Part shown: positions 25,790-58,586 of the stretch, one piece after another
Layout of the letters: each line of letters opens with the position of its first letter
How positions within the stretch are numbered: the first letter of the stretch is position 1
Assembly (NCBI GenBank): GCA_039190745.1
Contig: JBCCXZ010000009.1
Span: 15,874 to 79,873 of the forward strand
Direction: 5' to 3'
From: Planctomycetota bacterium
GTDB lineage: Bacteria > Planctomycetota > Planctomycetia > Pirellulales > Lacipirellulaceae
DNA length: 64,000 nt
The notes under the pieces: generated by a model
Seen by the model: only the letters and a program-made list of their open reading frames with translations
Told to the model about the DNA's origin: nothing
The model's database searches: none
Made by a program: the position numbers and the translations under genes

Positions 25790-26326
25790 GGGGAATGAAC
25801 CGCAGAGGACGCGGAGGGCGCAGAGAGAAAAAGAGAGAAAAGAAGTAGCAGGAAGGGGTTTGGATGGAGGTGAACAAGGTTAGCGGGGCCATTGTCGATG
25901 CGGCAATGAAAGTGCACTCGGCACTGGGGCCAGGGTTATTGGAGTCGGCCTACGAAGGCTGTCTTACTTTTGAGTTGAATCGCCGGGGATTGTCGGTTGC
26001 TCGGCAAAACGAACTGCCCGTCGTCTACGAGAAAGTCCGGATAGATGTTGGCTATCGTTTGGACTTGCTGGTTGAAGAATCCGTGATAGTAGAGCTGAAG
26101 GCGGTCGAGAAGCTAAAGGAAATCCATAAGGCCCAGCTACTCAGTTACCTCAAACTGAGCAACAAGCCAGTCGGTCTCCTCATCAACTTTCACGTACAGA
26201 GATTGAAAGACGGAATCGTCCGCCTAGCAAACAACGCCTAGCAGCCACGTACTTTCCTCTTCTTGCCTCTTTCCCTCTTCCTCTCCTTTTCCTCTGCGAC
26301 CTCCGCGACCTCTGCGGTAAATCCCC
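25790..26326. mobile_element. Cassette bounded by inverted 9-nt tandem-unit arms (family 1) carrying a GxxExxY gene
   Basis: Left accgcagag-gacgcggag-ggcgcagag (25799-25825); right ctctgcgac-ctccgcgac-ctctgcggt (26292-26318); 25/27 complementary. Mobility is inferred, not shown. Confidence 0.65.
25864..26241 (+). CDS. GxxExxY protein (PD-(D/E)XK nuclease-like)
   Basis: GPGLLESAY motif, RLDLLVE..IVELKA, QLLSYL, GLLINF; lower GC than neighbours. Confidence 0.93.
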   Translation: MEVNKVSGAIVDAAMKVHSALGPGLLESAYEGCLTFELNRRGLSVARQNELPVVYEKVRIDVGYRLDLLVEESVIVELKAVEKLKEIHKAQLLSYLKLSNKPVGLLINFHVQRLKDGIVRLANNA

Positions 26327-26332
26327 TCGCGT

Positions 26333-27394
26333 TCACCGCGTTTGCAGCTCGTCCAGAGTCACCGCGTACTCCATCAGCCGCTGGCCCTCGCTGCCGATGC
26401 CGACCATTGTCACCAAGACCGGCTGGGCGCCCCAGTCGATCCGCAGCACGCCGAAATTGGTCTGCCGCAGCACCGGCGAGACGCGGAAGCGGTTCGGCTC
26501 GTCCGCTTCGCCGGGGTCCTGCGTCAGGCCCGACGAGGTAAAGTCGACCATCGGGTACGGCGCCGCCTCTTCCTCGTCGCGCGAGATCTCCATGAGGTGG
26601 CGGTCGCCGGAGACCATCACCACGCCGCCGGCGCCCGTCTCGCCGATCAGGTCGTACAGCCGCCGCCGCTCGTGCGGGAAGTTGCCCCAGCACTCCCACT
26701 GGTGCTCGTAGGGCACGACCTGGATGCTCGACCCGATCACGCGCAGGTCGGCCGGCTTCTTGAGTTGCTCGCCGAGCCACGACCACTGCTCCTCGCCTAG
26801 GAGTTGGGGCGATCCGTCTTCGTGCGGGAGGTACGGCCCAATGTTCCCGCGTTGCCAGTTCTCTGCACGCCGCAAGGCGTCGCGGTGGTAGCGGGTGTCG
26901 AGCAGGATCACCTGCACCCGCCGGCCCGGCGGGCCGAACACCCACGCGCCGTACACGCCTTCACGCTGCCAGCGGAGCGAGTCGGCCGGCTCATTGAAGA
27001 ACATCAGCATCAGCTGCTGCGACTCACGCTTCATGGGGAACTCTTTGCCCGCGTCGTTCAGGCCGTAGTCGTGGTCGTCCCAGGTGGCGAGCACCGGGCA
27101 GGTCCGCAGGAGCCGCTGGTACCCAGGCTGCTGCCCGAGCACTCGGTAGGCCTCGGCGATGTCGCCCGGCGAGCGCGGCTTCTCCGGCGAGTCGGCGTAC
27201 ATGTTGTCGCCGATGAACAGGAACAAGTCCGGCTGCTGGGCGATCACCTGATCCCAGATCGGCTGCGGGCGGTCTTCCTTGGCGCAGGAGCCGAAGGCGA
27301 TCGTGTCGATCACCCCGTCGGCGGCGGAAACTGCCTGCATCGAAAGAACAGTGCAAGCGGCGAGCAGGATCAGAGCAGCGGCGGAGCGTGACAT
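26333..27394 (-). CDS. PhoD-like alkaline phosphatase
   Basis: IAFGSC, GDNMYAD, WDDHD, LLDTRY, SGDRH. Confidence 0.9.
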   Translation of the reverse strand: MSRSAAALILLAACTVLSMQAVSAADGVIDTIAFGSCAKEDRPQPIWDQVIAQQPDLFLFIGDNMYADSPEKPRSPGDIAEAYRVLGQQPGYQRLLRTCPVLATWDDHDYGLNDAGKEFPMKRESQQLMLMFFNEPADSLRWQREGVYGAWVFGPPGRRVQVILLDTRYHRDALRRAENWQRGNIGPYLPHEDGSPQLLGEEQWSWLGEQLKKPADLRVIGSSIQVVPYEHQWECWGNFPHERRRLYDLIGETGAGGVVMVSGDRHLMEISRDEEEAAPYPMVDFTSSGLTQDPGEADEPNRFRVSPVLRQTNFGVLRIDWGAQPVLVTMVGIGSEGQRLMEYAVTLDELQTR

Positions 27395-27529
27395 AGCGGC
27401 TTGGCGGGTAGAAGGGCAGGGCGGGGCACACGGGAGTGTGACCGTTGCCGACCGAGCCCGTCAACCAGCCGCCGCGAATCTTCACGGGCATAACGGACAC
27501 CGCACTGGCGCGAGGGCCGTCTTGCTCTT

Positions 27530-27601
27530 TGTGGGAGGCCTCTCCGAGGCCGATGATGTTCTCAAAGCAGACCGAAATCGGGCTCAGAGAGCCCCCCCAC
27601 A
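27530..27601. repeat. REP-like inverted doublet (REPIN-like), copy A
   Basis: tgtgggaggcctctccgaggccgat...atcgggctcagagagcccccccaca; same unit as 48139-48213. Confidence 0.7.
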
Positions 27602-27643
27602 CTAGGACGAGAGCAGGAGAAGCCGGGCCCCTTCCCACTTTCC

Positions 27644-27672
27644 CTCCGCGTACTCTGCGCCCTCTGCGGTTC
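27644..27672 (-). repeat. Orphan family-1 arm directly after the preA stop codon
   Basis: ctccgcgta-ctctgcgcc-ctctgcggt-tc; same unit as 26292 and 32474. Confidence 0.8.
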
Positions 27673-27676
27673 CACT

Positions 27677-28807
27677 CTACCCGCGGGCGAGCGCGTCGCT
27701 CTGCTCGACGAAGTCGTCGCCGTCCCACTCCTCGTCGGCGGTGATCATCCGCTGCCGCTCTTTCTCGGCCTTCTTCGCCGCCCGGGCCTCGGCCTGGCGT
27801 TTGACCAGGTCGGCGTGCGTGGTGAAGAACTGCAACGAGTGCCCGCGGAAGTCGTCGAGCGTCTCGAACCCGTGCTGCTCCATGAAGGCGAGCAGCTCCT
27901 CCTGCATGGTTTGCACGCAGCGGTAGCCCATCTTCATCACGCCGGTGCAGACCTGTACCGTGTGGCTGCCGAGCAGAATAAACTCCGCGGCGTCTTTGCC
28001 GGTCTCGACGCCGCCGATGCCGCTGAGCGTGCACTCTGGGAACTCGTCCCTCAGCACTGTGGCCACTTCCATACACATGCGCAGGGCGATCGGCTTAACC
28101 GCCTGACAAGAGTACCCGCCCGGCGTGGTGTAGCCCTCGACGTTCGGCTCGGGGCGGAGCGAGTCGAGGTCGACCCCAATAACGCTGCGGATGGTGTTGA
28201 TCGCGGCGATGCCGTGGCAGCCCGCTTCGAGGCTGGCCCGCGTGGGGTCTTCAATGTGCGTGACGTTGGGCGTCATCTTGGCCCACACTGGCTTCTTGGC
28301 CACCTCCATCACCCAGCCGCACACCTCGCGGAGGATGTCGGGGTTCTCGCCCATCGCGGCGCCCATGCGGCGCTCCGGCAGCCCGTGCGGGCACGACATG
28401 TTCAGCTCGAACGAGTCGACCCCGGCCTCCTCGCAACGCCCGACGATCTCGTGCCACGCATCGCGGTTGTACTCTTCCATGATCGAGGCGATCAGGATGC
28501 CCTCAGGGTGCGAGTCCTTGAGCGCCTTGAACTCGTCGAGCCAGGTCTCGAAGCTGCGGTCGCTGATCAGCTCGATGTTCTCCCAGCCGTAGATCTCGTT
28601 CGACTCGCGGCTGCGGAGCCGGCCGTAGCGGGGCTGGACGTTGATCACCTTCGAGGCGTCGAGGCTGACCGTCTTGCAAATCACGGCGCCCCAACCGTCG
28701 TCGAACGCTCGGCCGATCACCTTGCCATTGGTGCCGGGGGGGCCGGAGCCGATGACAAACGGGTTGGGGAGCTTCAGGCCGTTGACGGTCGTGGCGAGTG
28801 TGGGCAT
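27677..28807 (-). CDS. preA: Dihydropyrimidine dehydrogenase catalytic subunit (PreA/plant PYD1-like, no C-terminal 4Fe-4S domain)
   Basis: NPFVIGSGPP, NIELISDR, ELNMSCPHG, KMTPN, GIGGVETG; no CxxCxxC ferredoxin motifs at the C-terminus. Confidence 0.9.
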   Translation of the reverse strand: MPTLATTVNGLKLPNPFVIGSGPPGTNGKVIGRAFDDGWGAVICKTVSLDASKVINVQPRYGRLRSRESNEIYGWENIELISDRSFETWLDEFKALKDSHPEGILIASIMEEYNRDAWHEIVGRCEEAGVDSFELNMSCPHGLPERRMGAAMGENPDILREVCGWVMEVAKKPVWAKMTPNVTHIEDPTRASLEAGCHGIAAINTIRSVIGVDLDSLRPEPNVEGYTTPGGYSCQAVKPIALRMCMEVATVLRDEFPECTLSGIGGVETGKDAAEFILLGSHTVQVCTGVMKMGYRCVQTMQEELLAFMEQHGFETLDDFRGHSLQFFTTHADLVKRQAEARAAKKAEKERQRMITADEEWDGDDFVEQSDALARG

Positions 28808-28836
28808 GGCTCTGGCTTTCGATTCAAGAACAGTGA

Positions 28837-28978
28837 CTCTCGCAAAGGCGCGAAGGCGCAAAGGAGAGAGCCAAAGAGCTTCCTAAATGATGTCTTTCTG
28901 TTTTACCAAACTCGGCTATATACCTCTCGAAGAGCTAATGAAGACTCTTGATGTCTTCCCTTAGCGCCTTCGCGAGAG
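28837..28978. repeat. Inverted 8-nt tandem-unit arms (family 2) around a ~95-bp AT-rich spacer
   Basis: ctct-cgcaaagg-cgcgaagg-cgcaaagg ... ccttagcg-ccttcgcg-agag. Confidence 0.85.
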
Positions 28979-28987
28979 CCTCTCCAC

Positions 28988-30343
28988 TCAGACTGTCAAT
29001 TCCGAAAGCACCTCATCCAACGACGCGACCAAGTAATCGGCGTCGTCCTTCGTGATGCACATCGGCGGTTTGATCCGCAGCGTGTTGCCGTACAGTCCGC
29101 CCTTGCCGACCAGCACGCTGCGTTCCTTCATCTTCTCCAGCACGTCGGCGGTCTCCGCGGCCGCGGGCTCTTTGGTCTTTCGGTGCTTCACGAGCTCGAC
29201 GCCCAGCATGAGGCCCATGCCGCGCACCTCGCCGATGAGAGCGTGCTTCTCTTGCAGCTCGAACAGCCGGTCTTTGAGGTGGCCGCCCACTTCCAGAGCG
29301 TTCTCCTGGATGCCGTCTTCTTCGATGACTTCGAGCGTAGCCAGCCCCTGGGTCATGCTCACGGGGTTGCCGCCGTAGGTGTTGAAGTGCACGCGATTCT
29401 TCATCATCTGGGAGATCGGATCGGTCGTGGTGAACGCCCCCAGCGGGGCGCCGTTGCCGATGCCCTTGGCCATCGTGATGCCGTCGGGCACCACGCCCCA
29501 GTTCTGGTGGGCCCAAAAGTGCTTGCCTGTGCGGCCGAAACCGCCCTGCACTTCGTCGGCGTAGCACAGCCCGCCGTGCTCGCGGACGATGTCGTACACG
29601 ATCTGGAAGAACTCCGGCGGCGGGGTCACGGCGCCGCCGACGCCCTGGATCGGCTCGCCGATGAAGCACGCCACCTCGCCGGGGGTTTGGTACTCGATGA
29701 CGTTCTTCACGTCGTGGGCGCACTTCAAGCCGCAGCTGGGGTACTCGAGGTTGAAGGGGCAGCGGTAGCAGTACCCCGCGTGCGTGTGCAGGATGCCCGG
29801 GGCCTGGTTCGACTTGAACCGCCACGTGCCGTGGGCGGTGAGGCCCATCGTGGTGGCGGTGCCGCCGTGGTAGGCGTTCCGCAGGCCAATGACGTCGGTG
29901 TTGCCGGTGTGCTCGCGGGCCGAGAGGATCGCGACCTCGTTCGCCTCGCTCCCGGAGTTCGTGAAGTACGTCCGGTCGAGCCCCTCGGGCATGTGCGAGG
30001 CGAGCTTCTCGGCGAACTTGGCGATGTTTGGGTGCAGGTAGATCGTCGTCAGGTGCTGCAGCTTGCCGTTCTGCTCGTCGATCTTCTCGATCACCTTCGG
30101 GTGGCAGTGCCCGACGCTGACGGTGACGATCCCCGCGAAGGCGTCGAGGTACCGCTTGCCGGTCTCGTCCCAGACGTACTGCATCTTCCCCTCGACCACC
30201 ATCAGGGGGTCGCGGTAGTAGGTGATCACGCCGGGCGAGACGTACTGGCTCCGCAGCGCGATGACCTCCTCACGCGAGGGGCCGTCGTAGGCCGCGGGCT
30301 CGTGGTCGATGATTGGCAACTGCAATTGGGCGTCGGTGGACAT
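28988..30343 (-). CDS. Class III PLP aminotransferase (AGXT2/PYD4-like, probable beta-alanine aminotransferase)
   Basis: YLDAFAGI..VGHCHP, NSGSEANE, EPIQGVGG, DEVQGGFGRTG, MAKGIGNG; pyrimidine catabolic context. Confidence 0.88.
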   Translation of the reverse strand: MSTDAQLQLPIIDHEPAAYDGPSREEVIALRSQYVSPGVITYYRDPLMVVEGKMQYVWDETGKRYLDAFAGIVTVSVGHCHPKVIEKIDEQNGKLQHLTTIYLHPNIAKFAEKLASHMPEGLDRTYFTNSGSEANEVAILSAREHTGNTDVIGLRNAYHGGTATTMGLTAHGTWRFKSNQAPGILHTHAGYCYRCPFNLEYPSCGLKCAHDVKNVIEYQTPGEVACFIGEPIQGVGGAVTPPPEFFQIVYDIVREHGGLCYADEVQGGFGRTGKHFWAHQNWGVVPDGITMAKGIGNGAPLGAFTTTDPISQMMKNRVHFNTYGGNPVSMTQGLATLEVIEEDGIQENALEVGGHLKDRLFELQEKHALIGEVRGMGLMLGVELVKHRKTKEPAAAETADVLEKMKERSVLVGKGGLYGNTLRIKPPMCITKDDADYLVASLDEVLSELTV

Positions 30344-30361
30344 AGGTTGTTATTCGAGGGG

Positions 30362-30399
30362 AATGGACAGGATAACAGGATCAGCAGGATGGACAGGAT
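30362..30399. repeat. Family-3 arm (xCAGGAT units) upstream of the aminotransferase start
   Basis: aat-ggacaggat-aacaggat-cagcaggat-ggacaggat; 20 bp are identical, inverted, to 58567-58586. Confidence 0.85.
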
Positions 30400-30405
30400 T
30401 TCGTC

Positions 30406-30499
30406 TCTCGCACAGGCGCAAAGGCGCAAAGGCGCAAAGAAGAGATTGAGTAGCAGATTCACTCTGGAGCGTTCTTTGCGCCTTAGCGCCTTTGCGAGA
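30406..30499. repeat. Inverted family-2 arms around a 32-bp spacer
   Basis: tct-cgcacagg-cgcaaagg-cgcaaagg-cgcaaaga ... tctttgcg-ccttagcg-cctttgcg-aga. Confidence 0.88.
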
Positions 30500-30514
30500 T
30501 TTCTTCTTTCCAAG

Positions 30515-31966
30515 TTACTCGGCGCCAACATCCACATCCCCCACCTGGGGCGTCAGCACGCCTGGCGGTTCGCCGAGGCCGCGTTCTGCTTGCGTGCCGG
30601 GGATGAGGTTGTCCAATGCGATGCCCAGGATCGCCGCCACGGCCATGCCCGTCTTGCCGATGGCGCCGAGCAGCTGGCCAGAATCTCCCATTCTATCAAG
30701 CAACGCGGCGCCGGCCTCGCTATTGAAGTAGGCCGGCACGCTCAGGCCCATGAACAACGCGAAGCCGCTGATCAGCAGGTTGCGGTCGCTGTTCAGGTCG
30801 GCCTTCGAGAGCTGCCGGACGCCCACGGCGCTGATCAAACCGAACATCACGCAGTAGAGCCCGCCGACCACCGGCTGAGGGATCGCGGTGGCGATCGCGC
30901 CGAACTTGCCGAACAGGCCCAGGACGATGAGCACAACCGCGGCGATCTGCACCACGTATCGGCTGCCCACCTTGGTGAGGCCCACCAGGCCGATGTTCTC
31001 TGAGTAGCTGGTGCTGCTGAAGCCGCCGAACACGCCGGTGAGCGCACAGCCGACGCCCTCGAAGCCGATTCCGCGGGAGAGCTCCTCCGCGGTGGGGTCG
31101 CCGCCGCCGGCCATGTGCTTGCAGGCGTGGTAGTCGCCGAACGACTCGATCATCGACGCCAGGTACCCCGCGAGCACCGCGACGATAAACGCCGCGCTGA
31201 ACTGGGGCATTCCCCAGGGGAAAACGACCGTCGACGTGCGGAACCACTCGGCGTCCTTCACCGCGTCAAGGCTCACCCGCGCCGGGTGCCCCTCGCCGTA
31301 AACGCCCGCGGCGGTCAGCACCGAGCACAGGCCGACCACCGTAAGGATGGCGATCAGCATCGGGAACAAGCGGAACAGCCAATTGGTCTTCGAGAGCACC
31401 AGCGAGATGACGATGATGAGCACCATGGTGAGGATGCTCGTCGGCCAGTGCGACGCCGCGACCGGCGCCCCCGCCTGGTAGAGCGCCAGGCCGATCAGCA
31501 TGATCACCGGCCCCACCACCACCGGCGACAGGTGCCGCCGCACAAAGCCCATCAGGCCGGTGAAGCCGATAGCCATCTCGCACACGGCGCCGACGATCAC
31601 CGCCCCCGCGATGTACCGCATGCACATCGCCCCGTCGCCGCCGAGGCCGCCTTCCTCCACCGGCGCCACCACCGTGGGGATGATCACGCCGCTGAACGCC
31701 GCGAGGAACGAGAAGCTCACGCCCTGGATGATTGGCAGCCGCGAGCCGAAGGTCGACTGGAGCAGCGTCGCCACCCCGCTGCAGAGCATCACCGACGAGA
31801 TCAAGAGCGCGATCTGCGCGGGCGACATCCCCATCGCCGGCCCCAACAACAGCGGCACAGCCACCGTCGAGCCAAACATCGTCAGCACGTGCTGCAGCGA
31901 GAGCACCACCGCCCGCCCGAAAGGCGGCTTGTCGTCGAGGCCGTAGATGATTTGCGGGGAAGACAT
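30515..31966 (-). CDS. NCS2/NAT nucleobase (uracil-xanthine) permease
   Basis: QHVLTMFG in TM1, ESFGD, NAT signature SYSENIGLVGLTKVGSR; many TM helices. Confidence 0.92.
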   Translation of the reverse strand: MSSPQIIYGLDDKPPFGRAVVLSLQHVLTMFGSTVAVPLLLGPAMGMSPAQIALLISSVMLCSGVATLLQSTFGSRLPIIQGVSFSFLAAFSGVIIPTVVAPVEEGGLGGDGAMCMRYIAGAVIVGAVCEMAIGFTGLMGFVRRHLSPVVVGPVIMLIGLALYQAGAPVAASHWPTSILTMVLIIVISLVLSKTNWLFRLFPMLIAILTVVGLCSVLTAAGVYGEGHPARVSLDAVKDAEWFRTSTVVFPWGMPQFSAAFIVAVLAGYLASMIESFGDYHACKHMAGGGDPTAEELSRGIGFEGVGCALTGVFGGFSSTSYSENIGLVGLTKVGSRYVVQIAAVVLIVLGLFGKFGAIATAIPQPVVGGLYCVMFGLISAVGVRQLSKADLNSDRNLLISGFALFMGLSVPAYFNSEAGAALLDRMGDSGQLLGAIGKTGMAVAAILGIALDNLIPGTQAERGLGEPPGVLTPQVGDVDVGAE

Positions 31967-32459
31967 AGATAGGATAACAGGATCGGCGGGATCTACAGGA
32001 TCAGTCGGATGCGGATTTCAATGTGCGATAGGCTTCTCGGACTTCCGCCCAAAGAGAATCCTTTATGTCTACAGGCTTCTTGTCTGCGATGCGCTCTATC
32101 GCCTCGGCGGGGTCGATCGAAAGAACGTGAGCGAGGCCAAATGCAGCAACCGTTGGTGATCGAGACAAACCAGCAGAACAAGCGACAGCGGTAGGAGTTC
32201 CAGAATCAAGCAATCCGAAGACCGAACGAAGTAGCAGCTTCAGCATGGATCGGTTGTTTCCTGCGCCGTCATTCAATGGATACCGAAGGTAAACGAATTC
32301 CCTTGGCAAACCGCATGGCTGCTCCTCGAGAGCCACATCAACGACTGCGGAAACACCCTGATCATGAAGCATCCGAAGATCGTTGAGGCCTGCTCGGGAA
32401 CTCACCCAAAGCATGCCGGCATGAATCTCCGTCATCCCGTCGATCCTGCAAATCCTGTC
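31967..32459. mobile_element. Cassette bounded by inverted family-3 arms carrying a phosphatase-like gene
   Basis: Left agataggat-aacaggat-cggcgggat-ctacaggat (31967-32001); right atcccgtcg-atcctgcaa-atcctgtc (32434-32459); lower-GC interior. Mobility is inferred. Confidence 0.6.
32001..32435 (-). CDS. Dual-specificity/protein tyrosine phosphatase-like protein
   Basis: CX5R loop ACSAGLSRS, YPLNDG acid loop; probable start MTEIHAG lies inside the right repeat arm. Confidence 0.8.
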   Translation of the reverse strand: MTEIHAGMLWVSSRAGLNDLRMLHDQGVSAVVDVALEEQPCGLPREFVYLRYPLNDGAGNNRSMLKLLLRSVFGLLDSGTPTAVACSAGLSRSPTVAAFGLAHVLSIDPAEAIERIADKKPVDIKDSLWAEVREAYRTLKSASD

Positions 32460-32473
32460 AGTCCTCCGCCTTC

Positions 32474-32508
32474 CTCTGCGCACTCCGCGATCTCTGCGGT
32501 TCATCCCC
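32474..32508 (-). repeat. Orphan family-1 arm directly after the nitrilase stop codon
   Basis: Reverse complement ggggatgaaccgcagagatcgcggagtgcgcagag versus ggggaatgaaccgcagaggacgcggagggcgcagag at 25790. Confidence 0.85.
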
Positions 32509-32512
32509 CGAC

Positions 32513-33385
32513 CTACAGCTCAACAATCGAGCCGTAAGTCTCCGGCCGGCGGTCGCGGAAGAACTGCCACGTGTTCCGCACTTCACGGATCATGTCGAAG
32601 TCCATGTCCGCGATCACGATGTCGTCCTCGTCGCGTTTCTCGCTCGCGGCGACGAACTGGCCCCGCGGGTCGCAGAAGTAGCTCTGGCCGTAGAACTCAC
32701 CGATCCGCCAGGGCTCTTCCCAGCCGGGCCGGTTGATGGCGCCGACGAAGTACTGATTCGCCACAGCGTGGGCGGGCTGCTCCAGCTTCCAGAGGTACTC
32801 ACTCAGCCCCGCGACCGTTGCCGACGGGTTGAACACAATCTCGGCGCCGGCCAATCCCAGGCAGCGGGCGCCGTCGGGGAAGTGGCGGTCGTAACAGATG
32901 TAGACGCCCACCTTGCCGACCGCCGTGTCGAAGATCGGGTACCCCAGGTTCCCCGGGCGGAAGTAGAACTTCTCCCAGAAGCCCGGCGCGCAGTGCGGGA
33001 TGTGGATCTTGCGGAACTTGCCCAGGTACTCGCCCGTGGCGTCGATCACCGAGGCCGTGTTGTAGTACACGCCCGGCAGGTCCTCTTCGTACATGGGCAC
33101 AACCAGCACCATCTGGTGCTTCTTGGCCAGCTCCATCATCAGCTTGGTCGTCGGCCCGTCGGGCACGGGTTCGGTCAGCTCGTACCACTTCGCGTCTTGC
33201 TCAGCGCAGAAGTAAGGTCCATAGAACAGCTCCTGCAGGCAGCAGACCTGGGCCCCCTGCTCGGCGGCCTGGGCGATCATCTCGACGTGCTTGTCGATCA
33301 TCGCCTGCTTGATCTTCTCCACCGGGGAGGTGGTCGGTTCGCAGGTGGTGGCTTGAATCAATGCGCCGCGGACGATCCTGGGCAT
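32513..33385 (-). CDS. Nitrilase-family beta-ureidopropionase (N-carbamoyl-beta-alanine amidohydrolase)
   Basis: E-K-C triad (QELF, RKIHIP, ICYDRHFP), EKFYFRPGN, FRDRRP; operon context. Confidence 0.88.
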   Translation of the reverse strand: MPRIVRGALIQATTCEPTTSPVEKIKQAMIDKHVEMIAQAAEQGAQVCCLQELFYGPYFCAEQDAKWYELTEPVPDGPTTKLMMELAKKHQMVLVVPMYEEDLPGVYYNTASVIDATGEYLGKFRKIHIPHCAPGFWEKFYFRPGNLGYPIFDTAVGKVGVYICYDRHFPDGARCLGLAGAEIVFNPSATVAGLSEYLWKLEQPAHAVANQYFVGAINRPGWEEPWRIGEFYGQSYFCDPRGQFVAASEKRDEDDIVIADMDFDMIREVRNTWQFFRDRRPETYGSIVEL

Positions 33386-33535
33386 GCGGCTTTTCCTCTC
33401 TGGTGAGCTCGTTGTGTGGAAGATGACGGGCGAAAATGCAATCGCCTAACCCTTGGTGCCGCCACTGGTTCTGCGGTATCGTAACGGATTCTTCACACAA
33501 ATCCTAGCAATGCCTTTCGAGCCAACGAGGCCGCG

Positions 33536-35050
33536 ATGAGCACCCCAACCGCCGCCGTTCAAGAAGTTCCGATCCTCTCCGGGGGGGGTTGGTCGACCGT
33601 CGCCGCCAATCAGTACGAGGAGGTCTACAACCCCTCGACTGGTGAAGTGATCGCGCGCACCCCGCTGTGCGACGCCGCAGCCACCGACGCGGTCGTGCAG
33701 TCGGCCGCCAAGGCGCTGCCCGCCTGGAGCGCGACGCCCGTGGTCGAACGGGCGCGGGTGATGTTCCGCTTCCGCGAACTGCTCGACAAGCACTTCGACG
33801 AGATCGCCGCGCTGGTCACCCGCGAGCACGGCAAGACCCTCGCCGAGTCGCGGGCCGAGGTGAACCGCGGCGTCGAGATGGTCGAGTTCGCCTGCGGCAT
33901 CCCTAGCCTGATCACGGGCCAGGTCCTGCCGAACATCGCCGGCGACGTCGACGCCGAGACCGTCCGCCACCCCGTAGGGGTGTGCGCCGGGATCACGCCG
34001 TACAACTTCCCGCACATGGTGCCGCTGTGGATGATGCCGGTGGCGCTCACCTGCGGCAACACGTTCGTGCTGAAGCCTTCAGAGAAGGTGCCGCTCTCGG
34101 CGGTGCGGCTGGGCGAGCTGCTGCAAGAAGCCGGCCTGCCCGAGGGCGTGTTCAACATCGTCCACGGCGGCAAGGAGGTGGTCGACGCGTTGCTCGAACA
34201 CCCGCTGGTGACCGCGGTGTCGTTCGTCGGCTCCACGCCGATTGCTGAGTACGTCTACCAAGTCGGTACCGCGAATGGCAAGCGCGTGCAGTCGGCCGGC
34301 GGGGCGAAGAACCACCTCATCGTGATGCCCGACGCCGAGATGGATCAAACCGTCAAAGCGCTCGCCGCGAGCGCCTACGGCTGCGGCGGCCAGCGGTGCA
34401 TGGCGGGCAGCTTTGCCGTGGCGGTCGGCGACGCGGGCGACGCCGTGGTCGACGGCTTGGTCGAGCACGCCGGCGGGTTTAACGTTGGCCCCTCCGACGG
34501 CGACGAGTCGGTCGATATGGGCCCGCTGATCCGCGGCGCGCACGTCGACCGTGTGGCCAGTTATCTCGACGTGGCCGGGGGCGAGGGCGCCAACGTCGCG
34601 CTCGACGGCCGGCGGGAGTTCGACTCCAGCGGCTTCCTGATCGGCCCCAGCGTGGTCGACCGGGTGAAGCCCGGTTCGCAGATGGCGTGCGACGAGATCT
34701 TCGGCCCCGTGCTGAGCGTAGCCCGGGCCTCGACGCTCGAAGAAGCCCTCGCGATGGGCGACGCGTGCGAGTTCGGCAACGGCGCCGCGATCTTCACGCA
34801 GAGCGGCCACGCCGCCCGGGAGTTCAAGCACCGCTTCAACGCGGGCATGATCGGCGTGAACGTCGGCGTGCCGGCGCCGATGGCGTGGTTCCCCTTCACG
34901 GGCTGGAACCGCTCGTTCTTCGGCGATCTGCACATGCAGGGGCTCGAGGGCGTGCAGTTCTACACGCGGCAGAAGGTGACCCTCACCCGCTGGCCCAAAA
35001 TGGCCGATTCGCACGCCGACCCGGTCTGGAAGTCTTCCGCCCGCGGTTAG
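33536..35050 (+). CDS. mmsA: CoA-acylating (methyl)malonate-semialdehyde dehydrogenase
   Basis: ITPYNFP, KPSE, SFVGST, GGAKNH, GQRCMA, EIFGP, GVNVGVPAP. Confidence 0.92.
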   Translation: MSTPTAAVQEVPILSGGGWSTVAANQYEEVYNPSTGEVIARTPLCDAAATDAVVQSAAKALPAWSATPVVERARVMFRFRELLDKHFDEIAALVTREHGKTLAESRAEVNRGVEMVEFACGIPSLITGQVLPNIAGDVDAETVRHPVGVCAGITPYNFPHMVPLWMMPVALTCGNTFVLKPSEKVPLSAVRLGELLQEAGLPEGVFNIVHGGKEVVDALLEHPLVTAVSFVGSTPIAEYVYQVGTANGKRVQSAGGAKNHLIVMPDAEMDQTVKALAASAYGCGGQRCMAGSFAVAVGDAGDAVVDGLVEHAGGFNVGPSDGDESVDMGPLIRGAHVDRVASYLDVAGGEGANVALDGRREFDSSGFLIGPSVVDRVKPGSQMACDEIFGPVLSVARASTLEEALAMGDACEFGNGAAIFTQSGHAAREFKHRFNAGMIGVNVGVPAPMAWFPFTGWNRSFFGDLHMQGLEGVQFYTRQKVTLTRWPKMADSHADPVWKSSARG

Positions 35051-35105
35051 TGCCGTTCAAGCTGATGGGACTACTCAGCTCACCAATGCAATGCTGCGTG
35101 GGGTT

Positions 35106-35309
35106 AAGGAGATGTGGGGATGGGTGGAGATAAGGGGGATGGCCGCCGGGCAGCCAACGTACTCCCTCTCAAGCACCTGAAGCTGATGGCGTTTCTTGTT
35201 GGACGACATCACTGGGGCCGAGCAACTCGCAAAGGACTTTAGTTTGTATAAGGTAGGAATCCCCTCCAAATGCCATCTCCTTCATCCCCAGCTATCTCCA
35301 CATCTCCTT
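35106..35309. repeat. Inverted tandem-unit arms (family 4, GGRGAT units) around a 130-bp spacer
   Basis: aaggagatgtggggatgggtggagataagggggatgg (35106-35142) versus ccatctccttcatccccagctatctccacatctcctt (35273-35309); 30/37 complementary. Confidence 0.85.
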
Positions 35310-35460
35310 TTTCTTACCTGCGTTCCCGCTAGCTCGAATCAAGGCGTAATCCTGATATCCTCGGTGACCCACGTGCCGTCGATTCAGTGATCGATTACCA
35401 TGATCCGTGCCGCCGGCGGGGCGTAGCTCGCCGGCTAGGAATCCACGAATAGAGATAACG

Positions 35461-45229: not shown

Positions 45230-45230
45230 T

Positions 45231-47174: not shown

Positions 47175-47333
47175 GATGGAAAGAGACTTTGACGAGACTC
47201 ATCTATCCTAGTCGTTGCCCGCGGGGGTCGAAACAAAATCCGCTTGGTAATCGCGGCCAGCAACGACCGTGCGGCTATTGGGGGGCAATCCCTAACGGTT
47301 ACAACGAAGTCGGCGCGGCCGAAACCCGCCGAG

Positions 47334-48113: not shown

Positions 48114-48138
48114 GCGGGGCTGCCAAACATATGCTCTT

Positions 48139-48213
48139 CTGTAGGAGGTCTCTCCGAGGCCGATCAGAGACTGCTACAGATAGCCTAATCTGGCTCGGAG
48201 AGCCCTCCTACAG
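48139..48213. repeat. GTAG-type REP-like inverted doublet (REPIN-like), copy B
   Basis: ctgtaggaggtctctccgaggccgat ... atctggctcggagagccctcctacag. Confidence 0.8.
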
Positions 48214-50586: not shown

Positions 50587-50588
50587 CG

Positions 50589-52097: not shown

Positions 52098-52253
52098 GGC
52101 GGCCTTTGGAACTGGCGCCCCCCGCCTACGGCCCGATGCGCACTGGAAGCAGGGTGCGCGAAGCCGAATTGCCCGTTGCCGGGGGGGTGGATATGCTGGT
52201 GGATTGCCGTCTCCCGCCTGAAACGAACCTAATTCTACCACAATCGAGCGTCA

Positions 52254-53570: not shown

Positions 53571-54325
53571 GTAGCCTCTTCGGCGAAACCCGCACCCGCG
53601 TCGCGTGGAACCACGCGCTCGTCGCCCCCGACGGGCACGTCCCCTCGCCGCTGGTCGGTTGGGAGAACGCCGAGGGCGTCGTGCTCATCAGCCCCGCCAT
53701 GGGTGGCGGCGAAGGCGGCCCGCGGTTCACGCAGTACCTCGTGACCGGCAGCGAAGCCTGCCGGAGCATCGGCACGCCCGAGGGCGTTGAGCGGTTGGTC
53801 TACGTGCTCGCCGGGCCGGCAACGCTCGATGGAAAGCAGCTCGCGGCGGACGACTTCGTCTGGCAGCCGCCGGGCGACGGCTCGACGCTCACCGCCGGCG
53901 ACGGCGCCAGCCTGCTAGTTTTCGAGCGCGTCTACGAACCACTGGCCGGCGTGCCCACCCCGCAGCGCGTCTCCGGTTCGCTCGCCGACGCGCCCGCCGA
54001 GCCGTTCCTCGGCGACCCCGATGCCGTGCTCGCCACGTTGCTGCCGGTCGAACCCGGCTTCGACATGGCCGTGAATGTCTTCACCTACCAGCCCGGCGCC
54101 GCGTTGCCGTTTGTGGAAACGCACATCATGGAGCACGGCTTGCAGATGACCGCGGGGCAGGGCGTGTACCGCTTGGGCGATTCCTGGTACCCCGTGCAGA
54201 CGGGCGACGCCATCTGGATGGCGTCCTACTGCCCGCAGTGGTTTGTCGCGATGGGCAAGTCGCCCGCCCGCTACGTCTACTACAAAGACATCCACCGCCA
54301 CCCGCTCCCCGGCGGCCCGGCATGA
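53567..54325 (+). CDS. allE: (S)-ureidoglycine aminohydrolase (bicupin)
   Basis: PFVETHIMEHG, GQGVYRL, WMASYCPQW, YYKD. Confidence 0.9.
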   Translation: MSSLFGETRTRVAWNHALVAPDGHVPSPLVGWENAEGVVLISPAMGGGEGGPRFTQYLVTGSEACRSIGTPEGVERLVYVLAGPATLDGKQLAADDFVWQPPGDGSTLTAGDGASLLVFERVYEPLAGVPTPQRVSGSLADAPAEPFLGDPDAVLATLLPVEPGFDMAVNVFTYQPGAALPFVETHIMEHGLQMTAGQGVYRLGDSWYPVQTGDAIWMASYCPQWFVAMGKSPARYVYYKDIHRHPLPGGPA

Positions 54326-55554
54326 CCGTCGACGCCGACGCACTGCTGGCCGAACTACACGCGCTCGCCGCGATCAGCGACTGCCCCGAGCCTCCGCCGG
54401 CCGTCACCCGGGTGGTGTTCACCGAGACCGACCTCCGCGCCCGCGCGTACTTCACCTCGCTCTGCGAACTGGCAGGCCTCACGGTCCGCGTCGACCCCAT
54501 CGGCAACACCTTCGCCCGCTGGGAAGGCTCCGAGCCCGACCTGCCCGCGGTCGCCACCGGTTCGCACATCGACGCCATCCCCCACGCCGGGATGTACGAC
54601 GGCACCGTCGGTGTTCTCGGAGGCCTCGAAGCGATCCGGGCGTTGCAGCGCAAGAGCATCAAGCCGCGGCGGTCGATTGAGCTGATCCTGTTCACCTCCG
54701 AAGAGCCGACCCGCTTCGGCGTCGGCTGCACCGGCAGCCGAATGATGAGCGGCGCGCTCTCGCCCAAACAGCTCAGCGAGCTCACCGACGAATCGGGCGA
54801 CAATTACGATACGGTCCGCCAGGCGGCGGGCTTCACCGGCGAGCTGGCCGACGTCGCTCTGCCGCAGGGGCACTACCACGCCTTCGTCGAGCTGCACATC
54901 GAGCAAGGCCCCGAGTTGGAAGCGGCCGGCCTGGACATCGGCGTCGTGACCGCCATCGCAGCGCCCGCCACGGTCGAGTTCACGCTCACCGGCGAGGGCG
55001 GCCACGCCGGAGCCGTGCTGATGCCCAAACGAAAGGACGCGCTCAACGCCGCCGCCGAGATCGTCTCCGCGATCGAATCGCTAGCCAACAGCAGCCCCAG
55101 CTCCGACCTCGTCGCCACCGTCGGCCGGCTGGAAGTCCACCCGGGGGCGGTCAACTCGATCCCCAGCCGCGTCTGGTTCACGCTCGACCTCCGCGACATC
55201 GACGGCGAGAACCGCAACGCGTTGCTGGAGAAGATCACCGCCGCGGCCCAAGAAGTCGCCAACCGCCGCGGCGTCGCCCTCGAGTGGAGCGTCCTCAACG
55301 CCGACCCGCCCGCAACCTGCGCCGACGCGGTGATCGCCGCGGCCGAGCAAGCGTCCGCCGGCCTCCAGCACCGCCGCATGATCAGCCGCGCCTACCACGA
55401 CTCGCTGTTCATGGCCCGCATCGCCCCCACCGGCATGGTGTTCATCCCCTGCCGCGGCGGCGTCTCGCACCGCCCCGACGAGTTCTCAACGCCCGAGCAA
55501 ATCGCCGGCGGCGTGAAGGTATTGACCGAGACGCTCGCAACTCTCGCGCAGTAG
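54322..55554 (+). CDS. M20 Zn-dependent hydrolase, ureidoglycolate amidohydrolase (plant UAH)-like
   Basis: ATGA overlap with allE; GSHIDAIP, SEEPTRFG, HAGAVLM, SRAYHDSLFMAR. Confidence 0.78.
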   Translation: MTVDADALLAELHALAAISDCPEPPPAVTRVVFTETDLRARAYFTSLCELAGLTVRVDPIGNTFARWEGSEPDLPAVATGSHIDAIPHAGMYDGTVGVLGGLEAIRALQRKSIKPRRSIELILFTSEEPTRFGVGCTGSRMMSGALSPKQLSELTDESGDNYDTVRQAAGFTGELADVALPQGHYHAFVELHIEQGPELEAAGLDIGVVTAIAAPATVEFTLTGEGGHAGAVLMPKRKDALNAAAEIVSAIESLANSSPSSDLVATVGRLEVHPGAVNSIPSRVWFTLDLRDIDGENRNALLEKITAAAQEVANRRGVALEWSVLNADPPATCADAVIAAAEQASAGLQHRRMISRAYHDSLFMARIAPTGMVFIPCRGGVSHRPDEFSTPEQIAGGVKVLTETLATLAQ

Positions 55555-55620
55555 GCCAGGGTATACCCGGGTGGCACCGACTGTCGGCCGTATAAGGCGC
55601 TGCTCTTGGTCCAGCGGGGC

Positions 55621-55716
55621 CGGCCGATTGTCGGTGTCGCTTGCGACAAGAGGTCATCGGCTCTCAGTAAGGCGATCGGGTTTGCCTCCTGTGCTGCGCA
55701 CACGGACAATCGGCCG
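55621..55716. repeat. 96-bp element with 17-bp terminal inverted repeats
   Basis: cggccgattgtcggtgt ... acacggacaatcggccg (16/17 complementary). Confidence 0.6.
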
Positions 55717-55791
55717 ATTCCGTGTCTCGCTTAATCACTAAGCTCCATGCGGCCGACAGTCCGTGCCACCCATTTACCAGCACGACCCGAG

Positions 55792-56646
55792 TCACTCACG
55801 ACCCACCGTCGCCGAGATAAACCCAAACGGCTCGTCCGTCGCAACGAAAACCTCGTTTTCGTTCTCCCGGCCGAACGGCGAGAGGTCCACGAGCAGGTGG
55901 TGCTTGTTCGGCAGCGTGAGGGTGATCTCCGCCGCGTCGCCGCAGGAGTCCAGCGCCGCCTGCCCCATGAAGTACAGCGACTCCTGAACGCTGCGGCTGT
56001 AGTGGTCGAGGAACCGCGCGAGCAACGCCTCGACAATCGCCGCCCGGCCGGCCGCGAAGTCGGCTTCTGCGGTAGCGTACCGCCAGCCAGCCGTGACCGA
56101 GGTCGCAAAGATCCGGTCGTCCGTGTCCGCCAGCGTGCGGTACTCGTCGCGGTGGAAGTCCTCGAACCCGCTCTCGGTCGTCTTCGCGATCAGCAGGTTC
56201 TCTAGCCCCGACCGCACCGTCGCTTCGCCGCTGCTGCTGACGTGCACCTCCGCCGTCGGCGTCGACGCGTCCCGAGCCACAAACCCGTGTGGCGAGTCGC
56301 CCAACCGGTCCCACACGCGCTCCTTCAGCATCACCCGGCAAGAATCCACATGGTCATACTGCCCGCAGAAGTGCCGGCCAATCGCCAGGCCGAACGACTC
56401 GATCGTGTCGACCGGGTGGTCCTTCGCCAGGCAGTAGATCGTGTTCTTGCAAGTGTCCGTGGCGATCACCGACCGGTTGTCGCCCTCGGTGTAGGCCGCG
56501 TCAAAATCGCCGTGCAGCTCGACGTCGACCGAAACCTCCACAAACTCGTGCCGCTCAGTGTTCGCCGCCGCTTGCCGCGGGCGGCGGACCTTGCTCACGC
56601 GGACTTGGTGCTTGCCGTAGGTGTGGGCTTTCAATTGGCCGGCCAT
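55792..56646 (-). CDS. pucL: Factor-independent urate hydroxylase (uricase)
   Basis: YGK, IATDTCKNT, KTTESGF, SRSVQ, PNKH, PFGFI. Confidence 0.92.
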   Translation of the reverse strand: MAGQLKAHTYGKHQVRVSKVRRPRQAAANTERHEFVEVSVDVELHGDFDAAYTEGDNRSVIATDTCKNTIYCLAKDHPVDTIESFGLAIGRHFCGQYDHVDSCRVMLKERVWDRLGDSPHGFVARDASTPTAEVHVSSSGEATVRSGLENLLIAKTTESGFEDFHRDEYRTLADTDDRIFATSVTAGWRYATAEADFAAGRAAIVEALLARFLDHYSRSVQESLYFMGQAALDSCGDAAEITLTLPNKHHLLVDLSPFGRENENEVFVATDEPFGFISATVGRE

Positions 56647-56711
56647 GCGGTCCTCTGCGGATTCGTGTAAGTTCGTCGTCTGGTCGACCAACATAACGTC
56701 TCCCGTTTCTT

Positions 56712-58010
56712 ATGTCAGAGCCCCGCGACAGAGAGTTTGCCATCGGCAGCCGCCGCGTCGTCACGCCCGACGACACGCGGCCGGCCACCGTTGTGGTCCG
56801 CGACGGGCTCATCGCCGAGCTGCTCCCCTACGAGCCGGGCCGCGGGGAAGACCTGGGCGACGTCGCAGTCCTCCCCGGCGGCGTCGACCCGCACGTCCAC
56901 CTCAACGAGCCCGGCCGCACCGAGTGGGAGGGCTTCCAAACCGGCACGGCCGCCGCGGCCGCCGGCGGCGTCACCACGCTGGTCGACATGCCGCTCAACA
57001 GCACGCCGGTCACCACAACAGGCGAGGCCCTCGTCAAGAAGCGGGCCGCCGCCACTGGAAAACTCTCCGTCGACGTCGGCTTCCACGCCGGGTTGGTCCC
57101 CGGCAACGCGGCCGAGCTGCCCGCGCTGCTCGACGCGGCCGTGCTTGGCGTCAAAGCCTTCCTCTGCCACAGCGGCATCGACGACTTCCCCGCCGCAGGC
57201 GAGCGTGAGCTCCGCGGAGCCATGCTGCTGCTCGCCGAGCGCGGCGTGCCGCTGCTGGCGCACGCGGAGATCGTTTCGGAAACGCCGCCGATGGCCGACC
57301 CCCGTCGGTACGCCGACTACGCCGCTTCGCGTCCGCCAAGCTTCGAACGCGACGCGATTGCGCTCTTGATCGACCTCTGCCGCGCCACCGGCTGCCGCAC
57401 GCACGTCGTGCACCTCGCCGACGCGGGGAGCCTTCCCGCGCTCCGCGACGCCCGGGCGGAAGGCCTGCCGCTCACCGTCGAAACGTGCCAACACTACCTC
57501 ACGTTCGCGGCCGAAGACATCCCCGACGGCGCGACCCAGTACAAGTGCGCCCCGCCCCTCCGCGACGCCGCCAACCGCGAAGGGCTCTGGCAAGGGCTCG
57601 CCGACGGCGTGATCGACTTCGTCGCTACCGACCATTCGCCGTGCCCGCCCGCAATGAAGCACGCCGACACCGGCCGCTTCGACCTCGCCTGGGGCGGCAT
57701 CAGTTCATTGCAGCTAGCGCTGCCCGCGCTCTGGACCGAAGCCGTCCGACGCGGCTACACGCTCGTCGACCTCGCCCGTTGGACCTCCGCCGCACCCGCC
57801 AAGCTGGTCGGCCTCTCCACCGGCATCGCCGTCGGCAACGAAGCCCACCTCGTCGCCTTCGACCCCGACGCCGAGTTCACCGTCCGGGGCGAAACGCTCC
57901 ACCACCGCCACAAGATCACGCCCTACGAGGGCCGAACCCTCAGAGGCGTCGTCCGCCAGACCTACCTCCGCGGGGCGCCGGCCGGGCAGGGCAGGGGGAA
58001 GGCGCTATGA
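56712..58010 (+). CDS. allB: Allantoinase
   Basis: DPHVHLNEPGRTEWEGF, AGGVTT, DMPLNS, HAE, KCAPP, TDHSPC, RHKITPY. Confidence 0.92.
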   Translation: MSEPRDREFAIGSRRVVTPDDTRPATVVVRDGLIAELLPYEPGRGEDLGDVAVLPGGVDPHVHLNEPGRTEWEGFQTGTAAAAAGGVTTLVDMPLNSTPVTTTGEALVKKRAAATGKLSVDVGFHAGLVPGNAAELPALLDAAVLGVKAFLCHSGIDDFPAAGERELRGAMLLLAERGVPLLAHAEIVSETPPMADPRRYADYAASRPPSFERDAIALLIDLCRATGCRTHVVHLADAGSLPALRDARAEGLPLTVETCQHYLTFAAEDIPDGATQYKCAPPLRDAANREGLWQGLADGVIDFVATDHSPCPPAMKHADTGRFDLAWGGISSLQLALPALWTEAVRRGYTLVDLARWTSAAPAKLVGLSTGIAVGNEAHLVAFDPDAEFTVRGETLHHRHKITPYEGRTLRGVVRQTYLRGAPAGQGRGKAL

Positions 58011-58528
58011 ACGCCGCCGTCATCCAGCAGATCAACGCGGCAACCGCCGATGAAGCCGCCGCCGTCTTCCGCAAGTGCTGCGGCTCCGCCTGGTGGTGCG
58101 AACAAATGACCGAAGCCCGCCCCTTCGCCGACGCCGACGCCGTCACCACAGCCGCCGACGCCGCCTTCGACCAGATGCCCCGCGAGGCATGGCTTGAAGC
58201 GTTCGCCGCCCACCCACAGATCGGCGACCTGCAGTCGCTCCGTATGAAATACGCCGGCAACCGTGAGTGGTCCGCCGGCGAGCAGTCCGGCGCCGCCGGG
58301 GCCGACGAAGAAACCCTCAAGCGCTTAGCCGCGGGCAACGCCGCGTACCTCCAGCGCTTCGGCTACATCTTCATCGTCTGCGCCACCGGCAAGACCGCCG
58401 CCGAGATGCTCGCCCTACTCGAAGCCCGGCTCGACAACGCCCCCGAAGCCGAACTCCCCATCGCCGCCGCGGAACAAAGAAAAATCACGCACCTTCGCCT
58501 AGCCAAGTTGTCTGATAGTTCCAACTAA
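58007..58528 (+). CDS. uraD: OHCU decarboxylase
   Basis: ATGA overlap with allB; AHPQIG, EQSG, RFGYIFIVCA, EQRKI..RL. Confidence 0.9.
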   Translation: MNAAVIQQINAATADEAAAVFRKCCGSAWWCEQMTEARPFADADAVTTAADAAFDQMPREAWLEAFAAHPQIGDLQSLRMKYAGNREWSAGEQSGAAGADEETLKRLAAGNAAYLQRFGYIFIVCATGKTAAEMLALLEARLDNAPEAELPIAAAEQRKITHLRLAKLSDSSN

Positions 58529-58545
58529 CACCCTTTGCGTTTCTT

Positions 58546-58586
58546 CATCCCGTCGATCCCTCCTTCATCCTGTTATCCTGTCCATT
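58546..58586 (+). repeat. Orphan family-3 arm before the uraH start
   Basis: catcccgtcgatcc is identical to 32433-32446; atcctgttatcctgtccatt is the exact reverse complement of 30362-30381. Confidence 0.85.

Follow-up and report, generated by a model that had tools for sequence, protein, structure and literature searches.

A GxxExxY nuclease gene between inverted arms of short tandem units, and related intergenic hairpins, in a Planctomycetota genome

A 64,000-nucleotide stretch of a Planctomycetota genome (GenBank assembly GCA_039190745.1, here G000; 3.89 Mb, 65% G+C, 125 contigs, 95.5% complete) carries a gene for a GxxExxY (PF13366, PDDEXK_3) protein between two inverted arms that are built from short tandem units. 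The whole stretch, G000:C9:15874-79873, is called the window, and positions are window positions unless they bear a G000 contig prefix. Arms of the same construction recur in intergenic DNA throughout G000, and among genomes the arm sequence follows the nuclease lineage. These elements probably belong to a DNA-level system that resembles REPIN/RAYT populations, that is, repetitive extragenic palindromic (REP) sequences with a REP-associated tyrosine transposase (RAYT), with a PD-(D/E)XK nuclease instead of the HUH transposase. The full form is a ~125-aa GxxExxY nuclease gene between two inverted arms; each arm consists of an outer end, frequently (G)AACC(A/G)C, and three to four tandem 7-10-nt units, and each nuclease lineage has its own unit sequence. 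Gene-less hairpins with matching arms would represent a non-autonomous population in intergenic DNA. The nuclease may recognise its cognate arms as site arrays or as an extruded hairpin or cruciform and cut there, after which copying or repair could spread or maintain the arms. The hairpin centre may also receive other DNA, such as REPs, a further hairpin or a small gene of foreign origin, for instance that of the phosphatase.

The cassette in the window has three parts (arms and hairpins are listed without strand here and below):
25791..25863: left (5') arm, with outer end GGGGAATGAACC, three CGCRGAG 9-nt units (25801-25825) and a polypurine extension up to the start codon
25864..26241, plus strand: GxxExxY/PDDEXK_3 nuclease gene, 125 aa, with E27, D67, E77-x-K79 and Q91 conserved in the family alignment
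26250..26326: right (3') arm, with a polypyrimidine extension, three CTCYGCG units (26292-26316) and outer end GGTAAATCCCC

The encoded protein matches PF13366 at E 4.2e-42 (143.6 bits, cut-off 22) and TIGR04256 at E 7.3e-44 (148.9 bits, cut-off 35). In an alignment of 61 GxxExxY sequences, D67 is invariant and E27, E77, K79 and Q91 are each at least 90% conserved. Structural matches to its AlphaFold model (pLDDT 96) are to PD-(D/E)XK nucleases only, the best being the BpuSI nuclease domain (Z 8.0), the Cas4-like SSO0001 (7.9) and BglII (7.2); these Z values are middling, and no subfamily can therefore be named. A Foldseek search of the model against the PDB gave nothing at E <=0.001, and sequence searches gave no solved relative at E <=0.01. 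The modelled fold thus indicates a nuclease and names no substrate. Four of the nine gene pairs tested were unsaturated and gave dN/dS values of 0.06, 0.09, 0.12 and 0.14, so the gene is maintained under purifying selection. PDDEXK_3 is listed with function "Unknown", in prokaryotes and viruses and with multiple transfers (PMC3424549). The window protein clearly belongs to this family (E 4e-42), and its catalytic positions are conserved; the consulted part of that source names neither a genomic context nor a DNA partner for PDDEXK_3, and the arms supply one.

GxxExxY genes were found in 26 of the 31 genomes searched, and G000 holds six. Five of the six have tandem-unit arms, each of a different family. 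Arms lie on both sides of four genes: CGCRGAG in the window, CGCAAAG between gltB and gltD, GATGA on contig C3 and GGRGAT between rpoB and rpoC. The gene on C117 has a CACGAAAG arm upstream, and its contig ends after the gene. The remaining gene, on C17, contains an in-frame TAA and has mismatched flanks, with a TGCGGA arm upstream and a CRCTAATC hairpin downstream; in the protein tree it pairs, with 99% support, with a gene in CGCTAAT arms. A first-pass annotation of the window, which proposed mobile or exchangeable cassettes, had expected such flanks at GxxExxY genes elsewhere, and this expectation is borne out. Among 97 loci (the six of G000 and all 91 complete matches from 30 relatives), the best flanking inverted repeat exceeds the 95th percentile of a control in 86; the control consisted of 150 random small genes of G000 (95th percentile 12.0, median 9.5, maximum 29). 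The corresponding count in the first 66 loci was 62, and there the arm mostly ends 0-70 nt before the start codon and begins again 0-30 nt after the stop. The closest GTDB homologues (80 loci, 62-74% identical, 78 of them with enough flank) come from Planctomycetota, Acidobacteriota, Chloroflexota, Gemmatimonadota, Armatimonadota, Nitrospinota, a Heliobacteriaceae metagenome-assembled genome and others. The same threshold is passed by 63 of these 78, and 56 of the 78 have at least two CRCRGAG units, the family of the window cassette.

Arm family and nuclease phylogeny are associated. On the protein tree of the first 66 genes, the arm-unit classes need 29 changes compared with a mean of 47.5 after shuffling, and none of 200 shuffles was as low. 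Flank homology collapses the 66 loci to 45 sites, with the gltB-gltD site common to seven genomes, so that much of this signal could reflect vertical descent. With one locus per site, 14-15 changes are needed compared with a shuffled mean of 26.9 and a minimum of 22 (0 of 500 shuffles as low). In a label-free test of 3602 different-site pairs drawn from 86 loci, protein identity correlates with arm similarity (Spearman 0.35; reached by 0 of 500 permutations), and mean arm similarity climbs from 0.22 to 0.59 across protein-identity bins. Gene and arms therefore travel together, between phyla too. Because arm family follows nuclease phylogeny across sites, the earlier suggestion that GxxExxY acts as a mobiliser is credible. 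Within the gltB-gltD lineage, the arms differ as CGCAAAG versus CGCAGAG in every unit of both arms.

For G000 as a whole, arrays were located by core-word chains and then by scans for each unit family. This gave 120 arms of at least three units from nine families. Four of these, CGCRGAG, CGCAAAGG, CAGGAT and GGRGAT, had been recognised in the window by the first-pass annotation; the genome adds CRCTAATC, TGCGGA, GATGA, CACRGAG and CACGAAR, and nesting is frequent: in the inverted-repeat scan, arms of the CAGGAT, CACRGAG, GGRGAT or CGCRGAG families enclose a CRCTAATC hairpin or a REP. For most tandem-unit arms the outer end is (G)AACC(A/G)C or TCTC(A)CGC. Cores scrambled ten times each gave 0 to 0.2 arms per family, and chance or low-complexity artefacts are ruled out by this control together with the shuffle controls. 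Though confident genes cover 79.6% of G000, 112 of the 120 arms lie outside them. Of the eight arms scored as coding, five are no more than 26 nt away from the end of a called gene, and three are truly intragenic TGCGGA heptamer arrays; TGCGGA is the sole arm family found inside open reading frames (ORFs). These three arrays lie at G000:C20:47804-47831, C36:22809-22829 and C47:6289-6309, 73-454 nt from the nearer gene end. Mimicry of Shine-Dalgarno sequences by purine arms was considered and dropped, because CRCTAATC, CGCAAAGG, CGCCAAG and CACGAAT have no such motif (by reading only).

Arm polarity is fixed: within 300 nt, a purine-rich (R) arm precedes its pyrimidine-rich (Y) complement in 44 cases and the order Y..R occurs in none. 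An R..Y hairpin reads R..Y on both strands. It had been proposed that the purine arm follows a stop codon and its complement precedes the next start on either strand; the either-strand part of that rule is automatic from palindrome symmetry, also for orphan arms with a degenerate partner, while the polarity itself stands. The 51 placed hairpins occupy 39 co-directional, 6 convergent and 6 divergent gaps, compared with 1336, 270 and 375 such gaps in the genome. Placement is roughly proportional to gap number, with divergent gaps under-used by length, and the supposed targeting to operon junctions is weak. Across 62 cassettes, the longest word shared by the 10-nt outer flanks averages 2.63 compared with 2.62 after permutation, which gives no sign of a target-site duplication, with the limit that arm ends are local alignments and very short duplications might escape.

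Each genome has its own dominant arm variant at many loci. The CGCCAAG pattern (three units, <=1 mismatch; reversed-pattern control 0-1) was counted 85 times in G018, 49 in G007, 44 in G009, 18 in G004, 17 in G003 and 6 in G008, all of which hold a CGCCAAG-armed GxxExxY gene; the 25 genomes without the cognate gene have none in 17 cases, 1-10 in seven and 46 in G005, and since all of these genomes are kin, the counts are not independent.

The content of orthologous junctions varies among relatives, as expected of exchangeable cassettes. In G001, a genus-mate of G000, the pyrimidine operon of the window has only paralogous matches (31-42% aa identity; its 65-69% DNA matches are not orthologue identities), so the universal rpoB-rpoC and gltB-gltD junctions were compared instead, in 29 and 28 genomes, respectively. 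Between rpoB and rpoC, four genomes (G000, G001, G009 and G005) have GxxExxY in GGRGAT arms, and G003, G007, G012 and G008 have gene-less CGCAAAG, CGCAGAG or CACRGAG hairpins. G018 has a 23S_rRNA_IVP fragment (E 7e-16) in TTGCAAAT-type arms, a cassette that G014 resembles (by eye only). A REP occurs in G002, a plain long palindrome in G023, and 15 genomes have short gaps of 59-150 nt. At the gltB-gltD junction, GxxExxY cassettes occur in six genomes, with G009 added by flank homology. Unlike G000, G001 has nested gene-less hairpins of other families there, although dS in the rpoB-rpoC cassette that the two share is only 0.19. G007 has an intact gene of the four-helix-bundle family, known from rRNA intervening sequences (IVSs), in CCAATGA arms (TIGR02436, E 9e-15), and G016 has a partial one. 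A decayed element is present in G004 (by eye), a 125-aa ORF of no family sits in CGCAGAG arms in G025, and 16 genomes have gaps of 16-215 nt without an element. Three further occupants were observed at these sites. The rpoB-rpoC junction of G020 (L041, 2433-3079) contains a DUF433 and DUF5615/PIN-like pair that looks like a toxin-antitoxin module, and G029 has a decayed DUF433 remnant (by eye). The gltB-gltD junction of G015 (L111, 777-1313) contains an IS200-like Y1 transposase beside TGTCTGA heptamer repeats (PF01797, E 5e-28; NF033573, 73.7 bits; RAYT model below cut-off).

Within the window, all 14 arms that had been placed by the first-pass annotation were recovered by the family scan of its span, every one intergenic. 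The repeat finder gave four pairs, 77-96% complementary over 25-40 nt: 25791-25830 with 26287-26326 (40 nt, 83%), 28849-28878 with 28945-28974 (30 nt, 77%), 30417-30441 with 30472-30496 (25 nt, 96%) and 35106-35143 with 35272-35309 (38 nt, 82%). The genes concerned and the features other than the GxxExxY cassette are as follows:
26333-33385, minus strand: pyrimidine-degradation-type gene set, with PhoD-like phosphatase, PreA-like dihydropyrimidine dehydrogenase subunit, class-III aminotransferase, NCS2 permease and CN-hydrolase
beyond 33385, plus strand: methylmalonate-semialdehyde dehydrogenase (MMSDH) and class-V aminotransferase genes, which follow the minus-strand set
27642..27677 (units 27644-27668): orphan arm of the CGCRGAG family, in CTCYGCG form on the plus strand, immediately after the stop of the minus-strand PreA-like gene
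28841..28974 (units 28841-28863 and 28960-28974): CGCAAAGG hairpin with a loop of 66-96 nt, between the PreA-like and aminotransferase genes
30362..30399 (units 30368-30399): orphan CAGGAT arm of four units, immediately upstream of the aminotransferase start in the minus-strand sense
30406..30499 (units 30417-30439 and 30474-30496): CGCAAAGG hairpin with arms of 25-26 nt, 92-96% complementary, and a loop of 30-42 nt
31967..32002 (units 31978-32001): CAGGAT-family arm, R form on the plus strand, at the 3' end of the phosphatase cargo and immediately upstream of the permease start in the minus sense; the pair is G000:C9:47851-48330
32001..32435, minus strand: DSP-type (CX5R) phosphatase-like cargo gene, 144 aa from an in-frame ATG, G+C ~54%, missed by the native-codon gene caller
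32434..32460 (units 32434-32457): CAGGAT-family arm, Y form on the plus strand, partner of 31967-32002
32474..32510 (units 32474-32498): orphan CGCRGAG-family arm immediately after the CN-hydrolase stop in the minus sense; it lies outside the CAGGAT pair, hence a nested layout
35106..35309 (units 35108-35140 and 35275-35307): GGRGAT hairpin of 204 nt between the MMSDH and class-V aminotransferase genes, its arms 38 nt and its loop 128 nt long
58546..58586 (units 58567-58580): orphan CAGGAT-type arm, in ATCCTG form on the plus strand, immediately upstream of the hydroxyisourate hydrolase start

Folded as single-stranded DNA, both CGCAAAGG hairpins are far more stable than shuffled sequence, that at 30406..30499 with z -6.9 and -7.3 and that at 28841..28974 with z -3.1 and -3.9. 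The 128-nt loop of the GGRGAT hairpin is unique within G000. Cargo was correctly described as a GxxExxY gene and a CX5R phosphatase gene of lower G+C, at 50-55% compared with 65% for the genome. The phosphatase-like product matches PF22785 (E 1.4e-8) and falls below the cut-off of PF00782, its CX5R motif having been read by eye in the translation. Elsewhere in G000, three ORFs lie in CAGGAT or CAGATG arm pairs, at C72:15167-15484 (plus strand, 105 aa), C2:126786-127073 (minus strand, 95 aa) and C81:4716-5204 (plus strand, 162 aa); none has a Pfam match at E <=0.1, and G+C is ~50% in C72 and C2 and 62% in the C81 loop.

A close relative, organism A, is represented by contigs of one sample (runs X2-X4), and its operon genes differ from those of the window by ~7% of letters. 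The evidence consists of contigs, not reads, and joints with a short side may derive from other repeat copies. A 5.7-kb contig spans the gap between MMSDH and the following gene; it has 93 letters where the window has 35050-35443, flanked by 255 letters on either side, and the 204-nt GGRGAT hairpin is therefore absent from organism A. In this contig 32001 is also joined to 32452, a joint that would delete the phosphatase cargo; one side of this joint has only 31 letters and the evidence is weak. The same applies to a purine-form CGCRGAG-family arm that abuts the site of 27642..27677, where one side has only 27 letters. Organism A has one extra 8-nt CGCAAAGG unit at 28963/28971, and its hairpin at 30406-30499 has the same arms with different loop letters. 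Two other differences were seen. In place of the 330 nt at 27314-27644, which lie between the PhoD-like and PreA-like genes, organism A has 2640 nt, a gene-scale insertion or deletion that adjoins the orphan arm and a REP. In the divergent promoter gap between CN-hydrolase and MMSDH, 58 nt of 33385-33444 are replaced by 248 other letters.

Several observations weigh against a nuclease-driven system. By loop length, the hairpins of G000 form three classes: 17 with loops of 3-44 nt, 27 with 82-180 nt and 8 with 417-1028 nt. Of the 27 loops of 80-200 nt, 13 are unique in G000, only 34 of 351 loop pairs match, nearly all via nested REPs, and none of the 27 matches the GxxExxY profile, a check validated by random control segments that overlap real genes, which did match. 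Simple copying of whole elements therefore does not account for them, and the gene-less forms cannot be recognised as products of deletion. Both the idea that loops are decayed nuclease genes and the idea that they are copied interiors were rejected on these grounds. G005 (87% complete) has 46 CGCCA[AC]G arms and no cognate gene, and G000 has CAGGAT, CACRGAG and TGCGGA arms without one. Cassettes are often old residents of a single site (seven genomes at gltB-gltD, four at rpoB-rpoC), so mobility of the gene itself must be rare. The same arms enclose other types of cargo, which makes a trans-acting host enzyme possible, and co-phylogeny demonstrates joint travel of gene and arms, not action of the protein on the arms. 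The empty arms had been interpreted as scars. This interpretation is not supported: the 27 loops of 80-200 nt are not GxxExxY-like, and the gene-less arms are genome-specific master variants at dozens of sites, for which amplification is a better fit than decay.

The alternative that survives best, although we consider it rather unlikely, is an RNA-level device like the IVSs of 23S rRNA. The arms would pair in the polycistronic transcript, and RNase III would cut the stem, release or silence the cargo and uncouple the cistrons, so that the arms make the insertion harmless or regulate the operon. RNA folding of the window cassette (25785-26332) predicts a stem of ~75 nt, from ~25790 to ~25866, that covers the cargo start codon (z -4.4). 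The predominance of co-directional gaps (39 of 51 hairpins) would suit such a device, as would the 23S_rRNA_IVP/four-helix-bundle family in similar architecture at the same junctions in G007, G016 and G018, and RNase III is reported to cut IVS stems in the part of PMC4990558 consulted. Selection for stems in the sense transcript would leave more G·U-compatible than A·C mismatches. Among 2180 paired positions in 62 cassettes, 1899 are Watson-Crick, and the mismatches include 71 G·T/T·G and 79 A·C/C·A (p 0.57; 49 and 58 with one locus per site), so the earlier proposal that arms pair in mRNA finds no support here. Arm sequence is also conserved with nuclease lineage across phyla beyond what pairing requires, and 12 of the 51 hairpins lie in convergent or divergent gaps. 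An RNA-level role can coexist with the DNA-level one.

It is less likely still that the hairpins are host structural elements of REP type, such as terminators, mRNA stabilisers or protein-binding sites, in whose loops small genes land or survive as passengers. The variety of unrelated cargo in similar arms (the phosphatase, the 105-, 95- and 162-aa ORFs without family and the IVS protein) would be explained in this way, nesting demonstrates that loops tolerate insertions, and four ordinary REP families are also present in G000. Random landing would not, however, make arm family co-vary with nuclease phylogeny over sites and phyla; moreover, G000 has one gene per family, with six genes for six arm families, and genomes that hold the cognate gene have high numbers of arms. 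A homing-endonuclease-like process is very improbable. In it, the nuclease would cleave unoccupied hairpins that belong to its own family, and repair from a filled copy via arm homology would copy the gene. Arms of 27-75 nt on both sides could provide the homology, G000 does contain unoccupied hairpins of matching family, and the lack of target-site duplication is what repair-mediated copying would give. Cassettes are, however, mostly vertical at fixed junctions, and every family in G000 has a single gene copy, even though four of these families have 10-33 arms of at least three units; efficient homing into empty sites is therefore not happening.

The nearest known systems share parts of this anatomy. 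REPIN and REP populations accompany a single-copy RAYT gene (REPtrons), and TIRtrons consist of a tyrosine transposase flanked by families of terminal inverted repeats, according to the consulted parts of PMC3116915, 10.1101/2022.05.22.493013 and PMC3733652. As in those accounts, the palindromic repeats here are intergenic and occur in tens of copies, each family has one cognate gene with repeats of that family on its flanks, vertical inheritance predominates, the gene is under purifying selection, master variants are genome-specific and target-site duplication is lacking. In contrast, the flanked gene here is PF13366 and not an HUH Y1 (IS200-like) transposase, and PF01797 (Y1/RAYT) has no match in G000 (95.5% complete). 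Each arm is an array of three to four tandem 7-10-nt units whose end is of ACC(A/G)C type, and not a single palindrome tagged with GTAG or CGTC, the gene lies inside the hairpin loop and loops capture other genes too. With HUH transposase and GTAG tag both missing, the system is not a member of the REPIN/RAYT family; the hairpin elements look like an undescribed cousin of REP-type selfish repeats.

Similarity to 23S rRNA IVSs with an S23p/23S_rRNA_IVP ORF, described for Coxiella and Leptospira in the part of PMC4990558 consulted, is also considerable. In both cases, a small ORF of lower G+C lies between terminal inverted repeats (a ~28-bp stem in the IVS), the insertion enters a highly transcribed unit without destroying it and horizontal gain is followed by vertical inheritance (PMC4990558, same part). 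The IVS-protein family itself occupies the same junctions in tandem-unit arms in relatives (gltB-gltD in G007 and G016, rpoB-rpoC in G018). The sites here are nevertheless protein-gene junctions and not helices 25 or 45 of 23S rRNA, as in that source, the cargo in the window is a nuclease or phosphatase and the IVS-protein gene (TIGR02436) has no match in G000. The cassettes therefore share architecture with ORF-bearing IVSs but do not belong to them.

Miniature inverted-repeat transposable elements and insertion sequences have terminal inverted repeats, short gene-less derivatives and presence/absence polymorphism between close relatives. All three features recur here. The differences are that target-site duplication and a DDE transposase are lacking and that gene-less copies share arms and not interiors. 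Integron cassettes differ in having one 3' attC and lying near intI and attI, whereas two inverted arms bracket each cargo here and cassettes are single and scattered among housekeeping operons; intI was not searched for. Literature searches on the nuclease family, on the IVS-protein family and on REPs in Planctomycetes found no account of arms built from tandem units or of a nuclease that is paired with repeats.

A broader proposal can be advanced tentatively, at somewhat less than even odds in our judgement. GxxExxY proteins may be the enzymes of widespread, undescribed and persistent DNA hairpin elements, each with a lineage-specific arm word repeated three to four times in inverted arrays. 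Such elements would maintain a population of gene-less hairpins, and the hairpin centre would serve as a landing pad for small genes that are slotted in and exchanged between essential operon genes such as rpoB and rpoC; ORF-bearing 23S rRNA IVSs would be one previously known special case. If this is correct, it would explain small foreign genes inside core operons such as rpoB-rpoC and gltB-gltD, and the long-puzzling ORF-bearing IVSs would gain a wider family. If the nuclease drives the hairpin populations, these would represent a second, mechanistically different route to the REPIN/RAYT lifestyle. PF13366/GxxExxY is a large orphan family with homologues in many phyla, and an arm partner for each lineage makes its function testable by binding or cleavage assays. 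In GC-rich genomes the arms also fragment assemblies and mislead both gene callers and the prediction of operons.

The best DNA match for the window among sequencing runs is a marine metagenome run. Near the pyrimidine-degradation genes, OHCU decarboxylase and hydroxyisourate hydrolase genes of purine catabolism occupy 56712-58946, and the 79-nt junction between them contains the orphan CAGGAT-type arm at 58546..58586. Four ordinary REP-like palindrome families are abundant in G000, including TGTAGGAGGCCTCTCCGAGGCCGATT with ~40 copies and CGTAGGATGGGTGCTCGCACCCATC, and two of the four have a GTAG tag, which the tandem-unit arms lack. Such palindromes occur in the window at 27528-27601, 48139-48213 and 55569-55771. 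The first is listed here as a feature in its own right:
27528..27601: ordinary GTAG-type REP-like palindrome of the TGTGGGGG..CTCTCTGAGCCC.. family, not a tandem-unit arm, matched at ~40 places in G001 at 73-86%

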